Of a stretch of DNA of 26,284 bases, positions 5,977 through 22,427 are shown piece by piece. The stretch comes from Candidatus Dadabacteria bacterium. Lineage in GTDB: Bacteria; Desulfobacterota_D; UBA1144; Nemesobacterales; CSP1-2. Location of the stretch: assembly GCA_040289575.1 (NCBI GenBank), contig PSLL01000033.1, positions 2,300 through 28,583 on the forward strand, written 5' to 3'. Each line of letters starts with the position of its first letter. The stretch's first letter is position 1. The translations under genes were made by a program, and so were the position numbers. The notes beneath the pieces are model-generated. The model saw only the letters and a program-made list of their open reading frames with translations. It was not told the origin of the DNA and made no database searches.

Positions 5977-7668
5977 ATGCACACTATGACGGAAGAAGAA
6001 AAAAACTTTTCAGAGCTCCTTGAAGAAACCATGCGTGTTCCCGACAGGGGACAGATTTTTAAAGGTAAAGTTGTGCGTGTCGATGAGGAGGACGTATTTA
6101 TCGACTTCGGTTTTAAGTCCGAAGGAATTGTCCCTATCAGAGAATTCTATGTGAAGACCGGCGAGTCTAAGGTAAATGTAGGGGACGAGGTTGAGGTGGT
6201 ACTGGAGAAATGGACGGGTAAGGAAGGGATTCCTACACTCTCTAAAAAGAGAGCCGATCTCATTAAAGAGTTCGAAAGACTGGAGCGAATCTACGAAAGC
6301 GGAAAGTTAGTCATCGCAAAACCCATAGAAAAGGTAAAAGGTGGCCTCATTGCCGATGTGGGTGAAAAGATTGAAATAAGAGCCTTTCTCCCAGCCTCAC
6401 AGATTGATATAAGACCACATACTAAACTAGACCAGTTCATAGGAAAAACACTTGAAGTAAAGATTATAAAACTGTCAAATGAGGGAATTGTTCTATCAAG
6501 GAGAAATTATCTAGAAGAACAGAGGGAGATTCTTCGTGCCAGTGTTCTTTCCACACTGAAGGAGGGAAAGACCGTATCGGGTAGGATTGTAAAGATTATT
6601 AACCAAGGCGCTTCTGTAGATTTGGGCGGAGTCGAGGGGTTCATTCCCATAAGTGAGCTGTCGTGGGGAAGGATAAAACAGCCGGGGGACGTTGTTTCAG
6701 TAAATGAAGAAGTGAGAGTCAAGGTCTTAAAGATTGAAGAGAACGGGAAAATCTCTCTTAGTCTCAAACAGACCCGACCCGACCCATGGACTTCTGTTGA
6801 GAAAAGATACAAGCCGGGTGCCAAGGTAAGAGGTAAGGTAGTCTCAGCTACGGATTTCGGCGTGTTTGTAGAAATCGAGCCGGGCGTTGAGGGATTGGTT
6901 CACATATCTGAGATAACTTGGACAAAGCGGTTCAGACATCCAAAGGAGATAGTAAATGTGGGTAGTCGTGTAGAAGCTGTGGTGCTCGAGGTTGATGTTG
7001 ATAAAAGGCGGATGGCTCTTAGTCTAAGGCGCATCGAACGCAGTCCCTGGGAAATATTCAAGGAAAAGAACGCCCCCGGAACAAGGGTAAAGGGAAGGAT
7101 CAAGAACATCACGGATAGGGGTATATTCGTAGAGGTAGAAGGGGATTTGGTGGGGCTAATCCGCCCCAGCGATGTCTCTTGGAAGAATAACGTAAATCTG
7201 AAGGAAGGATTCAGAACTGGCGATGAAATTGAGGTCGTTGTACTTAGCGTAGATGAAAAGAACCAGAGAATCGGACTCGGCATCAAGCAACTTACAAAAG
7301 ACCCATGGGAGGATATCCTTGAAAGATACAAACCGCATGAGACCATTCTCAGTGGGAAAGTCAAGGATATTAAAGATAGGGGGATCGTTCTAGAGCTTGA
7401 GGGTGGAATTGAAGGGTTTATAAGGGCATCAGAATTTAGCCATGAAAAGATAATGGACTTATCCAAGTTCGTTAAAATCGGTGATGAGGTCACTGCTCAG
7501 GTGATCGGTTTTGAGAGGGAAAAACGCCGGGTCAATTTAAGCAAAAAGCAGTATGATGAGTGGACTGAGAAACAAAGGGTTTCAAATTTCCTTTCCTCTC
7601 AGGGGGAAGGATCGATAAAACTTGGGGATGTCTTAGGTGATAAATTAAAATCTCTAATAAAGGAATGA
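5977..7668 (+). CDS. rpsA: 30S ribosomal protein S1
   Basis: Six S1 repeats (GFKSEG, AFLPASQID, GFIPISELSW, EGLVHISEITW, ...LGIKQL..DPW). Start is more likely ATG 5977 or 5986 than 5902. Confidence 0.96.
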   Translation: MHTMTEEEKNFSELLEETMRVPDRGQIFKGKVVRVDEEDVFIDFGFKSEGIVPIREFYVKTGESKVNVGDEVEVVLEKWTGKEGIPTLSKKRADLIKEFERLERIYESGKLVIAKPIEKVKGGLIADVGEKIEIRAFLPASQIDIRPHTKLDQFIGKTLEVKIIKLSNEGIVLSRRNYLEEQREILRASVLSTLKEGKTVSGRIVKIINQGASVDLGGVEGFIPISELSWGRIKQPGDVVSVNEEVRVKVLKIEENGKISLSLKQTRPDPWTSVEKRYKPGAKVRGKVVSATDFGVFVEIEPGVEGLVHISEITWTKRFRHPKEIVNVGSRVEAVVLEVDVDKRRMALSLRRIERSPWEIFKEKNAPGTRVKGRIKNITDRGIFVEVEGDLVGLIRPSDVSWKNNVNLKEGFRTGDEIEVVVLSVDEKNQRIGLGIKQLTKDPWEDILERYKPHETILSGKVKDIKDRGIVLELEGGIEGFIRASEFSHEKIMDLSKFVKIGDEVTAQVIGFEREKRRVNLSKKQYDEWTEKQRVSNFLSSQGEGSIKLGDVLGDKLKSLIKE

Positions 7669-8561
7669 TTAAATTGCGAACCTTCCTGTTTGCAGTGACC
7701 GTTGTGATACTTATAGTTTTTGCCTTTATAGCCGGCTTAGGGCTTGGTCTTGTAATCTCCGGCGAGGATAGCTTTACTGGCGGCGAAAGGGTTGCCGTGC
7801 TCGAAGTCGATGGCATAATCCTCGATTCCCAGCCGTACCTTGAAAGCCTTTCTAAAATCAAAAAAGACGACAGGATTAAAGCAGTTGTTTTAAGGATTGA
7901 CTCTCCGGGTGGGGCGGTTGGTCCGTCTCAGGAAATCTATAGTGAGATTAAAAAGATAAGAGAAAAGAAGCCCATAATTGCCTCAATGGGATCAGTAGGT
8001 GCTTCGGGGGGATATTATATCGCATGCGCCGCAGAGAAGATAATTGCAAACCCCGGAACGATTACGGGGAGCATAGGTGTGGTTGCCGAGTTTACAAACT
8101 ATGAGCAACTCCTTAAATGGGCTAAGGTAGACGTTCAGGTAATAAAGAGCGGGGAATTTAAGGACGTAGGCTCGCCGTTTAGGGAAATGACCGATGCCGA
8201 GCGGAAATACATTCAAAATCTAATTGATAACGTCCACTCTCAGTTCGAACATGCCGTCTCAGAAGGAAGAGGGATTGATCTAAAAGACGTGGATAAAATC
8301 GCCGACGGGAGGGTATTTACTGGAGAGCAGGCAAAGAGCCTCAAGCTTGTTGATGAATTAGGCTCAATTAGTGATGCAATTCGTCTTGCAGGAGCTATGG
8401 GCGGAATAAAGGGTGAGCCCAATGTCGTTTATTATCCAAAGAAAAAGGTGAATATACTTGATTTCCTTCTTTCGAAATTTGAATCTCACGGACTCATAGA
8501 CGGGATTCCGATAAAAGAGCGTTTTGGACTTTTCTACCTTACCAATTTAGCCACTAATTAA
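7665..8561 (+). CDS. sppA: Signal peptide peptidase SppA, 36K type (S49)
   Basis: N-terminal transmembrane helix; RIDSPGG, ASGGYYIA, TITGSIGV, KSGEFKD and ADGRVFTG motifs; ATGA overlap with rpsA. Confidence 0.95.
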   Translation: MIKLRTFLFAVTVVILIVFAFIAGLGLGLVISGEDSFTGGERVAVLEVDGIILDSQPYLESLSKIKKDDRIKAVVLRIDSPGGAVGPSQEIYSEIKKIREKKPIIASMGSVGASGGYYIACAAEKIIANPGTITGSIGVVAEFTNYEQLLKWAKVDVQVIKSGEFKDVGSPFREMTDAERKYIQNLIDNVHSQFEHAVSEGRGIDLKDVDKIADGRVFTGEQAKSLKLVDELGSISDAIRLAGAMGGIKGEPNVVYYPKKKVNILDFLLSKFESHGLIDGIPIKERFGLFYLTNLATN

Positions 8562-11019: not shown

Positions 11020-12834
11020 TTATTCATGTCCCCTGGAGCGAGACAATTGCGCACGCTTCCGGTCAAGTGCCATCTTGAAGACGCGAAGCGTGTTTAATTC
11101 GATAATATTCTTTCCCCGTGTCATATTTTGACCATGCCTTCTGACCAACAATGTAACATCTTCTATTCGTTTAATCTTAATGTTTAATTCTTTAGCACGG
11201 TTAAACCAGTCGTGGTCTTCACCAAATATGAGTGTATTATCGAAAAGCCCTACTTTTGTAAAAACCGATTTTCGATAAACACCCGCTCCTATGTAATATC
11301 GGAAGGATTCCTTTGGATTTCCGATGTATTCGTATTTGTTATTTTGGGGATTCATTTTCATCAGTTGCGCGTAACCATGGATCACTTCAATTTCGGGATC
11401 ACATAATAACTCACCAATTAGAAAATTTAAATTATTATCAGGCCAAAGATCGTCAACGTCCAAAAAAGCAATAAACTCGCCCGAAGCATCTTTGATTCCA
11501 CGATTTCGTGCAGAGGCCGGCCCTCCGTTTTCTTGTTTAAAATAACGAATATCACATGGAAGTTGCAGAATTATCTCTTCCGTTTTGTCTGTTGAGCCAT
11601 CATCCACAATGATCAGTTCAAGAGCGGGATAATTTTGAGAAAGGACGTTTTCCACAGCTTCATTGATGAAACGCTCTCCGTTAAGAACAGGAATTATAAC
11701 ACTGACTAGTGGCTTTTTACTGGAGTCAACAGTATTATCATGACCATGAAAATCAGTGTGATGGGTCAACCGATAATTTGGTGACCCTTTTAGAAAATCC
11801 AAAATTGCCAATGGAATCTTTTTCAAATCTCCCCCCAGTTCAAGAGTATAACCAGGTAAAGTTGAAGACAACCGACAGATAAAATCGTGTGTGTGACGGC
11901 CGACATATGGCAGTTGAGACATTGTGGTGAACGAAGTGACACGCTGAATTTTCCAGCTCGGCTCAGGCATAAGCCTACTCCCATCCAGATTAACAACCTG
12001 GGGTATCAAAATAGCTTTTAATGGCATCGCCGGAGCGATTTGTTTTCCGAATTGTGGATAGAGAAACATGACTGCTTTTTCCCGATCCAACCTTTGGGGA
12101 TTTTTTATCAATTTGGAGAATTCAGGAAAATTTACCATATGATCCACATTTAATTTTGCGGTGCAGTATAAGCTGTATACAAGTGGCTCCGGTTCCAGAC
12201 GAACAATAAGGTAGTCATCTGCAAGATAATACAGGCCTGCCTGTAGGCAGGATAAAGCGGTAGTGGATTTACCAATGCCACCCTTCCCGGTAATCAGCAC
12301 CGCCCCTTCTTCCGTTCCAATTGCTGCTGCGTGGAGAAGTTGGCATCCATTCTTCTCCATCCACCAGTGGAATAGTGTACGCAGAGGGGAAGCATGTACC
12401 CAATACGGTAATGTCTCGGCTTTCTGAACCCAGTAAATACCGGTTTTTGTTAAATGATCCATAAGATTAACCGAACACTCAATCCAGTGAAATGCGGTCT
12501 TAATGTGACTACTGTTAAACCCCCATATATCTCCCCTGTCCGTAAAACTCTCCCTATTACAAGGAGGAGGAACCATATCTACAGACGTAGAATCACTATC
12601 CCAAATGCAAAGCGTGAGGTCGGGAAGATTAACCTCTGGTATGCGGAGATGTTCCAGAGCCGGAGTGAGATGCGAAACCAGATTTTCTCCTGCGAATATC
12701 AGGCGAACGGTTGTTCCACCTATTTTATAGAAATGATGGAACTCCCCTGCGGATTCCTTTGCCTTCAGAAATCTTTTGTAACACCTTTCAAAAAAGTCTA
12801 TCTGTTCGGACTCAGTTTTTTGTATTCTGTCCAT
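11020..12834 (-). CDS. HprK-related P-loop kinase fused to a C-terminal GT2 glycosyltransferase
   Basis: LLHAAAI...LITGKGGIGKSTT...YLADDY (HPr-kinase-like); from about residue 375 [27 protein letters not shown] and GEDHDW (GT-A fold GT2). Confidence 0.88.
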   Translation of the reverse strand: MDRIQKTESEQIDFFERCYKRFLKAKESAGEFHHFYKIGGTTVRLIFAGENLVSHLTPALEHLRIPEVNLPDLTLCIWDSDSTSVDMVPPPCNRESFTDRGDIWGFNSSHIKTAFHWIECSVNLMDHLTKTGIYWVQKAETLPYWVHASPLRTLFHWWMEKNGCQLLHAAAIGTEEGAVLITGKGGIGKSTTALSCLQAGLYYLADDYLIVRLEPEPLVYSLYCTAKLNVDHMVNFPEFSKLIKNPQRLDREKAVMFLYPQFGKQIAPAMPLKAILIPQVVNLDGSRLMPEPSWKIQRVTSFTTMSQLPYVGRHTHDFICRLSSTLPGYTLELGGDLKKIPLAILDFLKGSPNYRLTHHTDFHGHDNTVDSSKKPLVSVIIPVLNGERFINEAVENVLSQNYPALELIIVDDGSTDKTEEIILQLPCDIRYFKQENGGPASARNRGIKDASGEFIAFLDVDDLWPDNNLNFLIGELLCDPEIEVIHGYAQLMKMNPQNNKYEYIGNPKESFRYYIGAGVYRKSVFTKVGLFDNTLIFGEDHDWFNRAKELNIKIKRIEDVTLLVRRHGQNMTRGKNIIELNTLRVFKMALDRKRAQLSRSRGHE

Positions 12835-12981: not shown

Positions 12982-14690
12982 CTATGCCACAACTGTGACA
13001 GGTAAATAGGGCGTTAGAACCCCATTTTCTAATTGGTAGACTTCATCAGCATGGGAGACTATAGACATATCATGGCTAATTATCAAAACCGCCGGGCAAT
13101 CGTCCAAGTCGGTGAGGTTATTCATTAACTGTCTTACTGCGGCTCTATCGAGATGGTTTGTTGGTTCATCAAGGATGAGCAGCTTGGGACAGCGAAGGAG
13201 GGCACGGGCGATTGCTATGCGCTGACACTCACCGCCCGATAGCAGAACTCCGTCTTCTCCTACTTGTGTATCGTATCCTTCGGGCAGTTGTTGGATAAAT
13301 TCATCGGCTAGAGCAAGCCTGGAAGCACGAATTATTTGCTGCCTTTCAAGAATCGGTGCTCCATACCCAATATTTTCAAGAATCGTTCCAGAAAACAGCG
13401 TGGGATTCTGCATTACAACTCCAATAGAACGTCGCAAGTGCGCAATGTCCAACTCCTCGTATGGTACTTTATCAGCGTAAAGATGGCCATCACATGGACG
13501 ATAAAAACCCAAAATAAGCTTAATGATGGTGCTCTTGCCTGCACCATTTGGTCCGATGATTGCCAAGGTAGAATCTGGATTAACGACGAGATTGAGATTC
13601 CGGAGTATAGATTGATCATCATAACTAAATGAAACGGACTCAAGAGAAAGAGAGCCTTTAAACTGTATCTTTTTTTTGCCACGATACGGCTCAGTCTCTT
13701 CAGTTTGCACCAAATTATACAAAGTAACCACAGATTCATTTCCAGCAACAATATCGGTAATTGAAGAAGTTATATTGTTCAATTGACTATAGAGGAAACC
13801 AGCCGCCACATAAAAAGATAGTAATTCCCCAATGGTCATAGAACTCCTCGCTATGGTGCCCCCCCAACTATAATAATAAGGATCCCAGAGATTCCAGTCA
13901 GAATTTGTTGAATCTGACCATTAATGGCATATATATAAGCCATCCTTTTGGTAGTGTTCTGAAGCCTTTCTATATTTTTAGTCTGACGTTCAATCTCTGC
14001 CCGTTCAGTCGACTGAATTTTGGTCAATTCCATGTGACGTAACACAAAAAGTATTCCTTTACTGAACACCTCGAAAGCTCGCTGAAAGACACGTACCCTT
14101 TCCTTGACCATAACACCGATATACCTATTTGTTAGAAAAACCACCGGAAAGATTGAACCCATCACCAAAAAGAGGGTCCAATTAAAATAAAACAAAACGA
14201 AGCACAGCCCCAAACTGGTAAAAAGCGATGGTAGGAGCTTCGATACAAGGGCATCACTCACGTTACTGAGCCTTTCAGTATCCTGAACGATCCTTGCGTG
14301 CAGTGTTTTCTGATCGACTCCGGTATGAAAAGCCCGGGAGAAATCGTAGAGCTTTCTTAAAATATCCACACGCAAATTAAAGATGGCTGTTTGGATGATA
14401 TTGATATTTACCGCACGCAACCCCAGGGAAATTCCGGAGTTTGCAAGTCGAAATGCGAAAATGCCTAGCCCAATGATTATAAGGAGATTAACATCCTTTT
14501 GAGGTATCACCTTATCAAATGCAAAACGAACAAGGAAAAGGGTGGGTAGAATTAGCAATGATTGGGCGGCCGAGCCAACGGCGTTTAATAGGAGAAGCCT
14601 GTACTGGCCTTGGTAAAACTTAATGAAATAGCGCCACGCGGGCAAATAAAAAAAAGACTTGTGTGATTCCTGACCGTTAGATTTATTCAT
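12982..14690 (-). pseudogene. ABC exporter (TMD+NBD) split by a frameshift at a G7 tract
   Basis: TMD ORF 14690-13851 and NBD ORF 13839-12982 (GPNGAGKST, LSGGECQR, LILDEPT) are in different frames. One extra G in the tract at 13859-13865 gives IIIVGGGTIARSSMTIGELLSF, a continuous exporter. Could be a sequencing error. Confidence 0.85.
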
Positions 14691-14693
14691 AAC

Positions 14694-15854
14694 TCAGCTT
14701 TTAGTTCCATCAGTAATCATCTTCGATAACAGCTTTTTATTCGTCCTTCTAATACCAGCTGATAAAATCAAAAATAAAAGTTGACGTAAGTTCCTCGCGT
14801 TAAATCGATATTGAAAAAATTTTGGAAATTCAACTACTGATGGTAATAATCCCGTACCATTAGTTAAACGTAGATACTCTATAAGGTAGAGAGGAAATCC
14901 ACCCAGAAGTGCATTTTCTTGGCTATTCATAATATAACGGTATTCAAAACGTTCAACCGGCGATACCGGAATATCGTTGACCTCAGCCATAACCGAACTT
15001 GGTATACGCGCTTGAAATTTATCCTTCAAATAATTCAACGCTCTTTTTAGTCTCAATCCCACCCGGTGCGTTTTTGCCTGTTCGATTAATCGCCTCCAAT
15101 CAATCTCTAAATCCGAGTAATTTATAACCGTCATAGCATCGGCAATCCAACGGATGGATGGTTCCGGATTCCATCTAACTCCATGAATAATGATATGTAA
15201 AAGTGTATCAACTGGGTTTAGGGCAGAAGTAGAAACGCCGCATACCGCCGTAGGTACGGAACCTTCCCAAAAATCCCTGTCAGAATCCTCCCGGCAGGAC
15301 TCGAATAAAAGATGCCAATGGAGATCGAATTCCTTCCCGGATTGGTTTTTGAACTCTGTGGAATGCCGATAACGTAGATCTTTCTCTATTGACTTGGTCG
15401 TTGACATCCAACCTGCTTTCCTAAGCAAATCAATGGCTGATGAAGCCTGCGAGGTAGGAACGAGGATGTCAATATCTGCCATAGGGCGAACACCATAGTT
15501 CTTGTAATAGAGTAATGTCAATGCGGTACCTTTAAGTACCATGGTTTTTATGCCGGCATTGTGAAGGTAACGCAGAATTTCGCTCATATCATAAAATAAT
15601 TTCTGATTCTCATACCATACTAATCGGTAGACTCCTTTTAGTCTGTTCATTAAAGGATCTCTCACTCCATGATGTTGTAAGTTCTTATACAGTAGCGGTA
15701 GCAACCGAAACGATCCTCTATCCATATGACCCTCAAAATCAGTAATACTTTTCCACTTCTCCCAGGCTTCAATTGCATCACTACCTTCTAAAAGTGCCGC
15801 CTGAAGAAGCAACTCTTGGTCTCTTGTCGCAAAAAAACCCTCACGCCATTCCAT
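14694..15854 (-). CDS. Nucleotidyltransferase, NTP_transf_5-like (family found in lasso/PqqD-associated clusters)
   Basis: VLKGTAL...YGVRPMADIDILV, FDLHW, LLHIIIHG and RWIAD motifs. Confidence 0.88.
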   Translation of the reverse strand: MEWREGFFATRDQELLLQAALLEGSDAIEAWEKWKSITDFEGHMDRGSFRLLPLLYKNLQHHGVRDPLMNRLKGVYRLVWYENQKLFYDMSEILRYLHNAGIKTMVLKGTALTLLYYKNYGVRPMADIDILVPTSQASSAIDLLRKAGWMSTTKSIEKDLRYRHSTEFKNQSGKEFDLHWHLLFESCREDSDRDFWEGSVPTAVCGVSTSALNPVDTLLHIIIHGVRWNPEPSIRWIADAMTVINYSDLEIDWRRLIEQAKTHRVGLRLKRALNYLKDKFQARIPSSVMAEVNDIPVSPVERFEYRYIMNSQENALLGGFPLYLIEYLRLTNGTGLLPSVVEFPKFFQYRFNARNLRQLLFLILSAGIRRTNKKLLSKMITDGTKS

Positions 15855-15897: not shown

Positions 15898-16598
15898 CTA
15901 TTCATATTGGTTCCTCACTCTACGGCGGCGATCAAGAGAGGCTTTCAAGATGCGTATGTAGTCCGTTTGAGATTTACGCTCACGGATAACGGTATTCGTG
16001 TTATGTAATCGTCTTTTCAAGACGACCTCAGGCATCATAAGACTTTTCAAATCCCGTTCCACTGCTTTTAAATACCAGTCAATAAATTCTCCCACTTGCC
16101 ACCTGGTTTCAAATGGACCCACACGAAGAAAAGCGTTTCGTCTAATGAGCATTGCGCCAGTAACATATCCCAGCATCAATTCATCAGGGCAGTTTATTTT
16201 TTTTGCTATACCCTCATCCAGCTCCAGACTAATAAACTGCCTCACGTGTCCGAATACTATGTCCAAATCGGGATAATTTTCAAGAATAGCCATCTGACGC
16301 GCTAGTTTATCTTCCACCCACAGATCGTCCGCATCGAGAAAAGCAAGGAATTTTCCTTGAGATAAATCTATCCCCCGATTTCGAGCGGCACCAATACCAC
16401 CATGGGACCGGAAACAATATCGCACAGAATCAACCCCCCCCTGGCTATATCTGCACTCCCATCCGTTGAACCATCGTCTACCACAACCACCTCGATTGGG
16501 CGATAAGTTTGGGCCAATACGCTTTCAATGGCCTCAGCCAGATACTTCTCACAGTTGTATACAGGTATAATCACACTCACCAGAAATTTATTTGTCAT
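15898..16598 (-). pseudogene. GT2 glycosyltransferase split by a frameshift at a G8 tract
   Basis: N-part (VSVIIPVYN...VDDGSTD) and C-part (GAARNRG, FLDADD, GEFIDW) are in different frames. The junction is the C8 run at 16434-16441; G9 or G6 restores the frame. Confidence 0.85.
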
Positions 16599-16852
16599 TA
16601 TCTTTATTTTTGATACTGTTTACCTTCGTTTTCTGATTGCGTTTACGGTCAGCGGAAAGGGAATAGGAATATTCATCCGCCTCAAGAAATGCAATGACCT
16701 CCCCTTGAGCAGCTGTGATACCAACATTACTGGCCACCGCGACGCCTTGATTAGATTGGTAAATATAATGAACCTCTTTAAAAGATCGGGCTATATTACC
16801 GCTGTTATCTGTAGAGCCGTCATCATGCTTTAATTGTAGATTGTAGCCTCAT
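16588..16852 (-). pseudogene. Internally deleted GT2 remnant
   Basis: Frame 16827->16588 reads HDDGSTDNSGNIARSFKEVHYIYQSNQGVAVASNVGITAAQGEVIAFLEADE-YSYSLSADRKRNQK...*. No in-frame start; the upstream ATG 16852 (MRLQSTIKA*) is out of frame. Confidence 0.8.
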
Positions 16853-16885: not shown

Positions 16886-17578
16886 TTACCTTTCGGTATT
16901 ACTTTCTATCTGCCGTTTGATTGACTGTCGCATTGCTCGCAGGAGTTGACGATCATTGTCTTTTGCATTTAACGACGCATTAGAAGCGTGAACCCGCTTA
17001 TGTACCAATACTTCAGGTATAATCGCCATCGGTATTTTTTTATCTTTGGCTCTGGCAAACCAATCAACATCCTCGGCTGTCAAATATGAAGTATCGAAAT
17101 TTCCAATCAAATCAAATAATGATTTGCGTGCGACCAAAGTCTCCATTATGTAGCCTACACATTCTCTTTCCAATAGTTCTTTCCTGAATCCCAGTGGTAT
17201 AGACTGTCCGGGTTCCAAAAAATGCCTAACCTTAGTAACTGTATACTGAATCAGCGGATTGCGAACCATATAACCTACTTGGGTACTCAATTTATGTGGC
17301 TCCCATATATCATCATGAGAAATAAAGGCAATAAACTCACCCCTTGAAGATTCTACACCAAGATTATAAGCGTCCGCAATTCCTCGATTAACTTGTCTGA
17401 CAAACCGTACAATTGGAAATGATTTGGCAATCCGTTCGGTACCGTCAACCGAATTACCATCGACTACAATGATCTCCAAGGGTCGCTTATCAGACGCTAA
17501 GACGCTATTTATCGCTGAAGCAATGAAACGCTCCCCATTTTTAACAGCGAGAATAACAGATATTGTTGGCTCATTCAT
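16886..17578 (-). CDS. GT2 glycosyltransferase
   Basis: ISVILAVKNG, VDGNSVD, AYNLG, FISHDD and AEDVDW motifs; likely start ATG 17578. Confidence 0.9.
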   Translation of the reverse strand: MNEPTISVILAVKNGERFIASAINSVLASDKRPLEIIVVDGNSVDGTERIAKSFPIVRFVRQVNRGIADAYNLGVESSRGEFIAFISHDDIWEPHKLSTQVGYMVRNPLIQYTVTKVRHFLEPGQSIPLGFRKELLERECVGYIMETLVARKSLFDLIGNFDTSYLTAEDVDWFARAKDKKIPMAIIPEVLVHKRVHASNASLNAKDNDRQLLRAMRQSIKRQIESNTER

Positions 17579-17607
17579 GGGCAGCCCATTTCTCTTTATC
17601 AGAGGGT

Positions 17608-18375
17608 CTATCGTGGGGTTTTTGTAAATTCCACACCCGCTCTCCACAATTCATCAAATTCAAACCAGTTAGAAAGCTTTCTTATATTTTCTTGTTTGCG
17701 CCTGCGATCCAAAGATTTCTTAAGAGCCTTAAACATGTATTTCTTGCCTAGATTTTCATTGTGGCTCATATTCTGTGCGTGCACACGGTAATAAAGCGTA
17801 ATCTCCTTCAAAATCGTGATCGAAACATCTAATTCTCTAGCGCGCAAAAACCAATCATGATCTTCCCAATGTAGAAGCGATTCATCAAACATTCCAACCC
17901 TATCGAATACAGATTTTTTAAACAAGCCGCTTCCTAGATGAACATTGGCTAATATATTTTCCGGCCCCCGGAATTTGATATTAATATCCGGAGCGCCCGG
18001 CATCTTTATATACTGAATACGGCCCATAACAACATCCAATGCCGGGTCTTCAATCAAGCGATTTAGTTGAATATTCAACTTGTTATCTGGCCAAAGATCG
18101 TCGGCATCCAAGAAACCTATGATTTCCCCACGCGCCATTTTAAGACCGGTATTTCGGGCTGAGGCCGGGCCGCTATTGCTTTGATAAATATAGCGTATGT
18201 CTTCGCCCATGCTCGCAGCTACTTTAGCCGTATCATCCGTTGATCCATCATCAACGATAATGACTTCCAAGGGGTTATATCTCTGATAGAGGATGCTTTC
18301 TACTGCCTCGCATAGAAACCTCGCCCCATTGTAAACGGGCACAATAACGCTAATAAAGAGTCTTGTAAATGTCAT
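17608..18375 (-). CDS. GT2 glycosyltransferase
   Basis: ISVIVPVYNG, VDDGSTD, ASARNTG, FLDADD and EDHDW motifs; likely start ATG 18375, since the longer ORF overlaps the upstream gene. Confidence 0.92.
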   Translation of the reverse strand: MTFTRLFISVIVPVYNGARFLCEAVESILYQRYNPLEVIIVDDGSTDDTAKVAASMGEDIRYIYQSNSGPASARNTGLKMARGEIIGFLDADDLWPDNKLNIQLNRLIEDPALDVVMGRIQYIKMPGAPDINIKFRGPENILANVHLGSGLFKKSVFDRVGMFDESLLHWEDHDWFLRARELDVSITILKEITLYYRVHAQNMSHNENLGKKYMFKALKKSLDRRRKQENIRKLSNWFEFDELWRAGVEFTKTPR

Positions 18376-18409
18376 TGTAGATAGATTGAACGCGCTTTTT
18401 TGAATATAC

Positions 18410-18865
18410 CTATTCCTCTTCCGGCAGCTTCGGCGTGGGCCAGCCCGTTTCATCAACCTCATGTATAGGATCTAATAAAAGTAAATCCTGCATATCGGTA
18501 TATTTATTCAAAACCGGGGCTTCAAATATAGGCTTTTTCTCGCTCAGCCCGGTTTCAATAAGACCATTGATTCCTTCTGAGCTTCTCCCTTTATCATCAA
18601 CAACAAGGCCCTCTTCCTGTAGCTCCGATATAAATCTATTTATATCATTTTCTATATCAACGTGAGCACCTACATATTGATGTTTAATTATCGCAATAAT
18701 ATCGCCTATAGTGGCACCAATTTCGATAAATCGCCAGACATCGGCCCCAACTCCAATTAAACTGTAATAATTACCATTATCCAGGTTAATTATGACGGTT
18801 TCACCGTCAATAGTCTCATGAGAAATCTTAGGGCTATTGATTCTAAAACGATCATTCGGACTCAT
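18410..18865 (-). CDS. PqqD/RRE-domain protein with C-terminal leader/core-like extension
   Basis: Residues ~7-89 (ETIDGETVIINLDNGNYYSL..VGADVW...FISELQEEGLV) fit the PqqD beta3-alpha3 pattern, followed by a linker and FEAPVLNKYTDMQDLLLLDPIHEVDETGWPTPKLPEEE. AAGGAG SD. Confidence 0.88.
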   Translation of the reverse strand: MSPNDRFRINSPKISHETIDGETVIINLDNGNYYSLIGVGADVWRFIEIGATIGDIIAIIKHQYVGAHVDIENDINRFISELQEEGLVVDDKGRSSEGINGLIETGLSEKKPIFEAPVLNKYTDMQDLLLLDPIHEVDETGWPTPKLPEEE

Positions 18866-19400
18866 CTTTAACTCCTTTCTTGGATGTTTTTATATACACC
18901 AACCGACAACAGAAACAGCCTCATTATAGAACACAAAGTCTCTCCTTCCAAAAAAATCTTGAATGCGACTAACATCAAAACTCATTGCACTATTATCGTG
19001 ACACTATCTAACAAGTCAACCCTAAAGAGGCACCGATTCAACTGTCGGATCAGACTTTAAGTGACATACTTCGAGGTTTAAATTACTGGGGCAAGTATGC
19101 ACCCTATAAGATTTCTCATGTGGCTCCGCCACCTTGCCCACATTTTACGGATCGTAATATATTGATTCAATTGGACTTTAGACCAGTATTCTTGATAATA
19201 AATGTCCAATTTAAACAGTTATATAAGACTTTGGGCTGTAATTAAAAATCAAAATCTAGATAAAGAAAATAAAACTATTCAACCTTGGATTGATAAATTA
19301 GAGTTAGAACAGAGGGGTTGATTGTTGGGTTTATCTAGTTCGATGAAGCGACCACAACCATTATGACATCTAAAGAGATAAGATAATTGGATAATATATT

Positions 19401-21486: not shown

Positions 21487-21563
<77 letters not shown>

Positions 21564-21751: not shown

Positions 21752-22333
21752 ATGTGGTTTATTTTGAAGATTACAAAGGACAGCGATGAAGTAAGCGTTG
21801 TGCAGGGGTTCAATAAATTTGACGATTGCTGGAACGAATATAGTAATTACCTCAGATCACCGTATAGCGTTCAAAACGGGTTTTTAAGAATTTGTTCCGC
21901 AAGTAGTGAAACCGAAGCAATAGAGGACATCAAAGCCAAAAGGCATGAGGACAAAGAGATCGCTATTAAAGAAAAGGGCTCCCCTGAGAGGGTGATTAAA
22001 GAATGGGCTAAGGTCTATGGGGTTGATATGAATAAGGCCGCCGAATTTACTACCGAAAAATTCCGCGAGGGAAAACCAAAAGACCTGTGGGCATCTGAAA
22101 TGTCCGAGAAGCTAAAAGAGATTGGTTATAAAACCATACAGGGGAAGGTGGCAAAACACACCCTTGGGGGGTCGGAATATGCTTTTGTAGATTTTAGAAA
22201 AACTATTTCAACTAAAGATGGCTCGTTCCATAAAATGGAGTCCTATAAACTCAAGAACATCAATGGAAGATGGCTGATTGATGAAGTGGAAATAAGAGAT
22301 GCAGAGGCAGACTTAGGAGGAGCAGAAGAATAA
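21752..22333 (+). CDS. Hypothetical protein; C-terminal half resembles NTF2-like/DUF4878 domains
   Basis: AAGGAGG SD; SPERVIKEW...KAAEFTT...YKLKNINGRWLIDEV pattern. Confidence 0.7.
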   Translation: MWFILKITKDSDEVSVVQGFNKFDDCWNEYSNYLRSPYSVQNGFLRICSASSETEAIEDIKAKRHEDKEIAIKEKGSPERVIKEWAKVYGVDMNKAAEFTTEKFREGKPKDLWASEMSEKLKEIGYKTIQGKVAKHTLGGSEYAFVDFRKTISTKDGSFHKMESYKLKNINGRWLIDEVEIRDAEADLGGAEE

Positions 22334-22336
22334 TAC

Positions 22337-22427
22337 TGGCGGAGAGGGTGGGATTCGAACCCACGAGGGGATTTAGTCCCCTACTCGCTTAGCAGGCGAG
22401 TGCCTTCGGCCACTCGGCCACCTCTCC
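22337..22427 (-). tRNA. tRNA-Ser(GCT)
   Basis: Reverse complement GGAGAGGTGGCCGAGTGGCCGAAGGCACTCGC-CTGCTAA-GCGAG, long variable arm, GGTTCGAATCCCACCCTCTCCGCCA. Confidence 0.97.

Follow-up and report, generated by a model that had tools for sequence, protein, structure and literature searches.

An RRE-domain protein with a leader-like motif on its own conserved tail heads a kinase and glycosyltransferase operon that appears to be spread across bacterial phyla

RRE-guided pathways are defined by a separately encoded leader, and a permanent fusion of RRE and leader would constitute a new architecture. The nearest published system to the locus described here is that of the LPP clusters of Bacillota, LppA/K/B/S/D/N (Popov et al., Nat Commun 2026, PMC13381572). 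The RRE-leader motif has been published as [Y/W]xxPx[L/V/I/F/A]. According to Popov et al., TbiB1, PbaB1, LppB and TfuB1 accommodate a [Y/W]xxPx[L/V] leader in a hydrophobic cleft with two pockets, formed in PbaB1 by Y39, L41, I44, I48, L65, Y69, F83, L87 and L92. The same paper reports that the PbaA leader pairs with the PbaB1 sheet at the three residues past the motif Leu, that LppB is insoluble without its leader, and that LppK puts several phosphates on core Ser3, just past a YxxPxVL...FET leader, and did not act when its target Ser was replaced by Thr or Tyr (PMC13381572). For pseudomycoidin, Zyubko et al. (Chem Sci 2019, PMC6993621) state that PsmK phosphorylates the C-terminal Ser and that the NTP transferase PsmN is required for placement of a hexose on the phosphate.

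Here we examine a protein that falls within RRE-guided peptide and protein modification, encoded in a stretch of 26,284 nucleotides assigned to Candidatus Dadabacteria (the window, meaning the whole stretch that was analysed). The presence in this protein of an RRE with a leader-like motif on its own conserved tail is confirmed. The 151-aa product probably serves the kinase and the sugar-adding enzymes of the neighbouring genes as their substrate or scaffold.

Architecture and conservation of the RRE-tail protein

The RRE-tail gene is the first gene of a minus-strand operon, an ORF at 18410-18865 whose 151-aa product has the domain order lasso-B1-type PqqD/RRE, variable linker and tail FEAPVLNKYTDMQDLLLLDPIHEVDETGWPTPKLPEEE. 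Contigs from two soil-metagenome runs (X3 and X4), neither of them flagged as a possible source, match the gene over its length without a single differing letter or gap. Of the 5 sequencing runs listed with this DNA, none was an RNA data set. The RRE, a PqqD winged helix at residues 1-90 (18596..18865, minus strand, as for all operon features below), was recognized by Pfam PqqD PF05402 (residues 22-88, E 4.5e-13, 49.8 bits, above the gathering score of 23.4), by profile search, by Foldseek and in an AlphaFold2 (AF2) model. A low-complexity stretch separates it from the tail, and the variable linker lies at residues 91-113 (18527..18595), with a mean top-residue frequency of 0.29 and an AF2 pLDDT of 52-59. 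Conservation and AF2 then mark a leader-like, putatively RRE-binding motif FEAPVL with the strand NKY (residues 114-122, 18500..18526), followed by a near-invariant distal block TDMQDLLLLDPIHEVDETGWP (residues 123-143, 18437..18499) and a variable C-terminal tip, TPKLPEEE (residues 144-151), which with the stop occupies 18410..18436. The placement of the fused tail in the first-pass annotation is exact, with the codon of F114 beginning at 18526 and the stop codon at 18410-18412. Upstream of the gene, the frames of small minus-strand ORFs at 18868-19209 are broken by indels relative to one related locus (L001), and we therefore do not read these ORFs as conserved coding sequence.

The RRE is closest to lasso B1 proteins. 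A profile of 80 family members matched the solved structures of TbiB1 (5v1u, 9.6e-17), PbaB1 (9x90, 9.5e-14), LppB (9x8z, 9.3e-9) and TfuB1 (6jx3, 2.1e-6), and the best Foldseek match of the AF2 model was leader-bound TbiB1 (5v1v, TMt 0.88). Scores against the lasso B1 NCBIfam models NF033536 and NF033530 both fell below their cut-offs (50.4 bits against 80 and 27 against 70). In order, the PbaB1 cleft residues correspond to Y34, L36, V39, V43, I60, Y64, F78, L82 and L87 of the window protein; we accept this mapping because the PbaB1 alignment is ungapped and the chain numbering, offset by 18 from that of the paper, is consistent with every residue named there. Among 220 relatives, Tyr occurs at position 34 in 196 (Phe in 20), L36 in 166, Ile at position 43 in 177, Y64 in 196, F78 in 145 (Leu in 65), L82 in 203 and L87 in 207. 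By alignment, PbaB1-type leader-cleft residues are thus retained, and, with these positions conserved, the domain looks able to bind an FxxPxL-type motif. The first-pass annotation drew on the RREs of lasso systems, and the kinship with B1 proteins that use [Y/W]xxPxL leaders, with the cleft residues kept, supports this. Its reading of FEAPVL as a leader motif stands in part: the xxPxL portion fits, but Phe is absent from the published [Y/W] first position.

Conservation is concentrated in the tail. In an alignment of 220 distinct relatives of 135-175 aa, drawn from 269 fetched proteins, the mean top-residue frequency is 0.57 in the RRE (residues 10-89), 0.29 in the linker (90-113), 0.85 in the tail (114-143) and 0.35 in the tip (144-151), matching the earlier expectation of a variable linker followed by a highly conserved FxxPxL...DLLLLDPIH...GWP tail. 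The motif residues F114, P117 and L119 are present in 214, 216 and 206 relatives, respectively, with Tyr (4), Trp (1) and Leu (1) as the alternatives at position 114. Beyond the motif, position 122 is Tyr in 205 relatives, Phe in 12 and His in 3, D124 and M125 occur in 216 and 215, D132, P133, W142 and P143 occur in all 220, and H135 and G141 each occur in 219. Although the sequence of the linker is free, its length is constrained: L87 and F114 are separated by 23-30 residues in 210 of 217 relatives, most often by 29 (118 relatives) and by 26 in the window, which fits a tether of set length.

Hydroxyl-bearing positions are less uniform. Position 123 is Thr in 155 relatives and Ser in 49, so that Ser or Thr is found in 204 of 220 and is missing in 16; the positions of T140 and T144 carry Ser or Thr in 122 and 104, respectively. 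The tip has a median length of 9 residues (range 3-27) and holds Ser or Thr in 170 relatives, with Ser or Thr as the final residue in just 19. The possible acceptors listed in the first-pass annotation fared accordingly: T123 is the most frequent, T140 and T144 are each Ser or Thr in roughly half of the relatives, Y122 is replaced by Phe in 12, and the family can do without any one of them. Also listed were H135 and the Asp residues, which are invariant or nearly so, yet these are not known acceptors of HprK-type kinases.

The family is large. A word-indexed search found matches at E<=1e-3 for 2,678 of 2,698 candidates of 83-265 aa, with a query coverage of 77-100% among the best 120 relatives listed. 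The 47-residue tail alone, in an exhaustive HMMER scan, recovered 2,044 cluster representatives at E<=1e-3. Judged from these sequence comparisons, the tail match is far beyond chance, and the statement in the first-pass annotation that such tails occur in other PqqD-family proteins was borne out.

Fusion, neighbouring genes and distribution

At 80 genome loci, the match to the window protein runs from residues 1-7 to at least residue 142 of 151. At 80 metagenome loci, RRE and tail share one open frame in 73, the gene runs off the contig end in 6, and an in-frame stop lies inside the RRE in 1. Longer fusions are represented by a single protein among 862 candidates, P0271, an RRE-tail-kinase chain on one 2.7-kb contig. 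From the locus counts and this single case, RRE and tail are as a rule fused, and almost every chain ends with the tail. P0271 has Gly at the position of T123 and may be a real fusion or the product of a lost stop codon; in its AF2 model, computed with a kinase-only alignment, the kinase has pLDDT >90 and the RRE-tail part just 27-63.

Candidate stand-alone tails, which would point to a natural split, were inspected. P0154, P0215, P0209, P0130, P0169, P0171 and P0176 are fragments that carry the end of RRE helix 3, and P0267 is a piece of the 157-aa protein P0269. P0245 sits in locus L084 behind an in-frame stop within the RRE, where relatives have Ser. P0268 (378 aa), a cluster mate of P0127, is an unrelated protein. 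Short tail matches outside the fragment set are P0122 (65 aa, on a 27-kb contig), P0137 (67 aa, on a 126-kb contig), P0127, P0257, P0230 and P0181.

All ORFs of 18-110 aa within 2.5 kb of the gene, from 80 loci and the window, were clustered in search of a separate precursor. No conserved separate small ORF was found within that distance at a blastp threshold of E 1e-3; the small-ORF clusters that did recur are all alternative frames of known genes. Because blastp has little power with peptides this short, a degenerate or more distant precursor may still exist. The absence of a nearby precursor ORF, already remarked in the first-pass annotation, thus extends to 2.5 kb around the gene in the 80 loci and the window. 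The same genome holds a contrast to the fused protein on contig C76, where the usual split arrangement is found: behind a tail-less PqqD gene lie a 70-aa ORF that contains WQEPDL and the gene for a transglutaminase-like B2 protein.

Downstream of the RRE-tail gene, the operon encodes glycosyltransferases, a nucleotidyltransferase, an exporter and a putative kinase. The first GT2 glycosyltransferase is listed as an ORF at 17608..18462 (likely start ATG 18375; PF00535 E 1.1e-35), the second lies at 16886..17647 (PF00535 E 4.3e-25), and the third, at 15898..16598, is present in the assembly as two overlapping frames, both matching PF00535; its frame changes near a G8 run, where read-derived contigs differ. 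A PF14907 (NTP_transf_5) nucleotidyltransferase follows at 14694..15854 (Pfam E 1.2e-43), then an MsbA-like ABC exporter at 12982..14690 (Pfam ABC_membrane and ABC_tran) in split frames. The split is a homopolymer frameshift at a G7 run (13859-13865), where contigs of runs X1 and X2 have one extra base that joins the exporter frames; in relatives the exporter is a single ORF of 571 or 603 aa.

The last enzyme of the operon, at 11020..12834, joins an HprK-like P-loop kinase domain to a fourth GT2 (Hpr_kinase_C at residues 168-212, E 1.7e-5, below the gathering score; PF00535 at residues 378-478). Bit scores of the HprK-like domain fall short of the curated cut-offs (PF07475, 24.9 against 33.3; TIGR00679, 21.9 against 240; TIGR04355 HprK_rel_B, 33.5 against 200), and because they do so by such a distance, HprK-like activity is assumed here from the P-loop GKGGIGKST alone. 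The modelled homologous kinase domain of P0271 has PEP carboxykinases as its best match; HprK/P shares the PEP carboxykinase fold. Pfam scans of 22 large ORFs or pieces in the window, a set that excludes the end-truncated ORF 3-752, contained neither a lasso cyclase nor a B2 protease. Housekeeping genes account for the rest of the large ORFs scanned; among them, outside the operon, lies an S49 peptidase at 7665-8561. Rfam at gathering thresholds reported three tRNAs only in the window.

The neighbourhood recurs in related loci. In a tblastn survey of 80 genome loci, in which many loci are short contigs and GT2 paralogues cross-match, HprK-like genes were found in 69, GT2 genes in 61-65 (the first GT2 in 65, the second in 64), PF14907 in 59 and an ABC ATPase in 30. 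Minority neighbours are GT4 (10), SDR (10), epimerase (6), radical SAM/SPASM (4) and sulfotransferase (4). No recurring peptidase was found among the 14 most recurrent gene clusters of related loci (representatives of clusters 4-13 were scanned), and no SpI-like leader peptidase was found in the operon ORFs or in those 14 clusters. Relatives were confirmed in Genome Taxonomy Database species representatives for 515 of 599 pattern matches, with carriers in Nitrospirota, Desulfobacterota, Chloroflexota, Cyanobacteria, Acidobacteriota, Ignavibacteria, Verrucomicrobiota and others. Cultured cyanobacterial carriers are Planktothrix sp. PCC 11201, Oscillatoria sp. PCC 10802, Microseira wollei NIES-4236 and Anabaena sp. 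UHCC 0451. By these gene matches, the operon is spread across phyla as an RRE-tail gene, a predicted kinase, GT2s, PF14907 and sometimes an ABC exporter.

Docking models and the reading of the tail

The AF2 model of the window protein, computed with an 80-sequence alignment, has a mean pLDDT of 80 and a pTM of 0.72. Confidence is high in the RRE (pLDDT 82-96), drops in the linker (52-59), rises to 91 at residues 111-120 and falls again to 69 at 121-130 and to about 54 in the remainder. DSSP assigns a helix to residues 125-131 and a strand to 120-122, the three residues directly after the motif Leu119, which correspond to those through which PbaA pairs with the PbaB1 sheet. The distal block at 123-143, with pLDDT 54-69, has no confident docking on the RRE in the monomer. 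From pLDDT and secondary structure we infer that FEAPVL packs in the RRE cleft.

When the RRE (residues 1-95) and the tail (108-151) were supplied as separate chains, complex prediction gave scores of 0.59, 0.59 and 0.60, against 0.01 for the best of 3 controls, in a range (<=0.60) that is often wrong and that holds just 18 of 157 solved complexes together with both mismatched pairs that passed. The mark that these scores reach is attained by 116 of 157 solved complexes and by 2 of 215 mismatched pairs. The partner pLDDT did not fall below 55, and 91% or more of the contacts were common to the runs, but the test used a custom alignment and similar complexes have been solved, so a pass may reflect memory. 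Taken together, these runs weakly support binding of RRE and tail in trans. Seen against the first-pass suggestion that AlphaFold could place FEAPVL as an added strand on the RRE, the confident segment 111-120 and the strand at 120-122 agree with it, and the packing in the cleft is suggested by the model at one remove, with a tentative signal from the complex of separate chains.

We favour, with a confidence somewhat better than even, a 'self-leadered' RRE in which FxxPxL is bound in cis and the operon enzymes act on the tethered tail. The N-terminal RRE would bind its own FxxPxL, located about 26 residues downstream (about 29 in most relatives), and this would fix the position of the near-invariant block YTDMQDLLLLDPIHEVDETGWP and the short variable tip. 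The invariant block would address the operon enzymes; the HprK-like kinase would then phosphorylate a hydroxyl of the tail, with T/S123 as the commonest candidate, and PF14907 and the three or four GT2s would attach sugars, probably to the phosphate as happens in pseudomycoidin, and lengthen the chain. The MsbA-like ABC exporter, when the operon has one, would export the product, which, given that no conserved leader peptidase was found, may be the whole modified protein. The models predict docking in cis, the tail is a putative modified acceptor, and by analogy its modification would proceed with phosphate and then sugars.

That no hydroxyl position in the tail is universal among the 220 relatives counts against a simple substrate reading, and the invariant residues D132, P133, H135, G141, W142 and P143 look more like a binding epitope than like a variable RiPP core. 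By simple spacing (18 residues after the aromatic), the position matching the LPP phospho-Ser is the invariant D132. Further points against our favoured reading are the restriction of LppK to Ser, the low model confidence of the distal block, the Phe at the first motif position and kinase scores far under the HprK cut-offs. The protein may instead act as an adaptor with a pseudo-leader, in which FxxPxL blocks the cleft as a cap or auto-inhibitor, to be displaced by an unlinked precursor or another protein, and DLLLLDPIH..GWP recruits the enzymes; in its favour, the invariant residues are atypical as acceptors, and a universal Ser/Thr position is lacking. Set against such an adaptor are the failure of any conserved small ORF to appear within 2.5 kb at the 80 loci and in the window (with the insensitivity of blastp at E 1e-3 to short peptides, and although a client may be encoded elsewhere), the near-universal fusion of RRE and tail, and a conserved gene content that comprises no more than the RRE-tail protein, kinase, GT2s and PF14907, joined in some loci by an ABC exporter. 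We regard the adaptor as unlikely, though the variable hydroxyls, the restriction of LppK to Ser, the epitope-like residues and the spacing to D132 leave it about a quarter of the probability.

Binding between molecules, with the FxxPxL of one in the cleft of another, would yield head-to-tail dimers or chains that scaffold the enzymes. The separate-chain score of 0.59 against a best control of 0.01 leans faintly this way, since RRE and tail still score when separated and binding therefore needs no covalent link. However, a cis tether accounts better for the tight linker length (210 of 217 relatives at 23-30 residues), and the monomer model already places residues 111-120 at pLDDT 91, so we consider chain formation improbable. 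We give less credence still to a tail that has no connection with the RRE and marks the protein from its C-terminus for export or degradation, with a coincidental FxxPxL match: some operons do include an MsbA-like exporter (ABC ATPase at 30 of 80 loci), but most of the 80 loci have no exporter match, F114, P117 and L119 are conserved alongside an intact B1-type cleft, and AF2 is confident at 111-120.

If the tail is held in cis and modified as we favour, the protein could further act as a lipid-independent glycan primer, in which the self-held tail receives a phosphate from the kinase, PF14907 and the GT2s build a phosphodiester-linked oligosaccharide on it, and the product is exported or displayed. 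We advance this extension tentatively, as a doubtful but appreciable possibility; it would amount to a cross-phylum, protein-primed phosphoglycan pathway with neither a separate precursor nor a leader peptidase. With at least 515 species representatives and 2,678 protein clusters in the fused family, a self-leadered RRE, if true, would explain the apparent lack of precursors in 'orphan' PqqD/HprK/glycosyltransferase operons and would give genome miners a rule for finding substrates. It would further imply that a small protein undergoes phospho-glycosylation of a kind so far unstudied, in organisms that include cultured cyanobacteria, whose presence among the carriers makes the idea directly testable. 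It could also provide a tractable substrate for PF14907 nucleotidyltransferases, whose role was left unsettled in both the LPP and the pseudomycoidin systems.

Comparison with known systems

A full-text literature search, to which subscription papers and the supplements of PMC13381572 were external, turned up neither a natural RRE-leader fusion nor an account of such an operon. Among catalogued systems, the NCBIfam 'HPr-rel-A system' is represented by models that include TIGR04352 and TIGR04353, and it resembles the present locus in pairing a PqqD-family protein with an HprK-related kinase. It differs in two respects: the 5 families listed for the window PqqD at E<=0.01 include no PqqD model of the HPr-rel-A system, and the window kinase scores 33.5 bits against the TIGR04355 cut-off of 200.

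The paeninodin and pseudomycoidin pathways resemble the window in pairing an HprK-family kinase with an uncharacterised NTP transferase. Unlike the window, in whose scanned ORFs neither cyclase nor B2 was found, they make lasso peptides with a cyclase, B1 and B2 proteins and a separate precursor, and in pseudomycoidin the modified residue is a C-terminal Ser, whereas the last residue is Ser or Thr in 19 of 220 relatives here. The structures of TbiB1 (5v1v/5v1u), TfuB1 (6jx3) and PbaB1 (9x90) show the same fold and cleft residues, with a motif followed by a sheet-extending strand. In those lasso B1 complexes the leader is a separate chain, destined for the B2 protease and the cyclase, whereas in the present family the motif hangs from the C-terminus of the RRE on a linker of about 26-29 residues.

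The likeness to LPP clusters, whose leader motif is [Y/W]xxPx[V/L], lies in that motif beyond its first residue and in a setting among polysaccharide and glycosyltransferase genes. [quoted passage not shown] In LPP clusters the precursor (35-200 aa) has a gene of its own and a leader peptidase of the SpI type (LppS) is encoded as well, whereas here the motif is fused to the RRE and no conserved peptidase accompanies it. LPP clusters are also mainly from Bacillota, in contrast to the many phyla of the RRE-tail family, in which Phe comes first in the motif and three or four GT2 genes form part of the core. The distal consensus differs as well, reading YxxPxVLxHQxIxFETxxS in LPP precursors and FxxPxLxKY(T/S)DMQDLLLLDPIHxVDxxGWP in the RRE-tail family.

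Reading-frame breaks and assembly quality in the operon

In the stretch 13851-13865 of the window, the reading frame of the operon's MsbA-like ABC exporter (12982-14690) breaks at seven consecutive G (13859-13865, minus strand). Contigs assembled from two sequencing runs, X1 and X2, carry one additional base at this run, which merges both exporter frames into one gene, and the exporters of relatives are single open reading frames (ORFs) of 571 and 603 aa. The split is probably a homopolymer error in the window and not the mark of a pseudogene.

The window also disagrees with read-derived contigs across 16197-16652, in the region of the third GT2 gene. The base at 16197 is missing from the contigs of X1, X2 and the soil metagenome X3, bases at 16409 and 16434 are substituted in those of X1 and X2, and 228 additional letters lie between 16651 and 16652 in X1, X2 and X3, with loose ends at this point in a further soil metagenome, X4. 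The frame of the third GT2 shifts near a run of eight G (16434-16441). The window assembly is unreliable across 16197-16652. A 49-aa ORF (16588-16737, minus strand) sits beside the 228-letter difference, with the second GT2 gene on one side and the third on the other. Its sequence (…GEVIAFLEADE…) resembles the central part of a further GT2, and a remnant and a collapsed paralogue are both possible readings of it.

Unusual members of the RRE-tail family

The sole long fusion found was the protein P0271 (522 aa), a single reading frame that runs from the RRE through the tail into an HprK-like domain. At the residue corresponding to the candidate acceptor T123 of the window protein, P0271 has G. 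It is known from one contig of 2,725 bases, and represents either a real fusion or the loss of a stop codon. A second protein, P0245 (46 aa), was considered as a ‘stand-alone tail’ and rejected, because it is the product of an in-frame stop inside the RRE of a family member (L084:1438-1995); the close relatives at loci L085 and L086 have Ser at that position.

DNA flanking the operon

Upstream of the operon, the non-coding DNA includes a block (about 19120-19261) that closely resembles the corresponding stretch of the closest related locus (L001), whereas the sequence on either side is divergent and carries indels. The block had no match in Rfam; it may act as a regulatory site or encode a small RNA. 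Three tRNA genes (Rfam RF00005; 21194-21267, plus strand; 21490-21563 and 22340-22427, minus strand) are found downstream of the operon region, and among them lies an ORF (21752-22333) without a match in a Pfam scan.

A second PqqD cluster in the same genome

The genome that holds the window also contains a second, canonical cluster on another contig, C76 (L083:393-4347). No cyclase was seen on this contig, which spans only 4,542 bases. The cluster includes a tail-less PqqD of 99 aa (393-692), overlapped by a 70-aa ORF (685-897) whose WQEPDL fits a leader-like WxxPxL pattern; a pair of ORFs that match nothing in Pfam come next, followed by a transglutaminase-like B2 protein (1974-2468) and an ABC-2 transporter.
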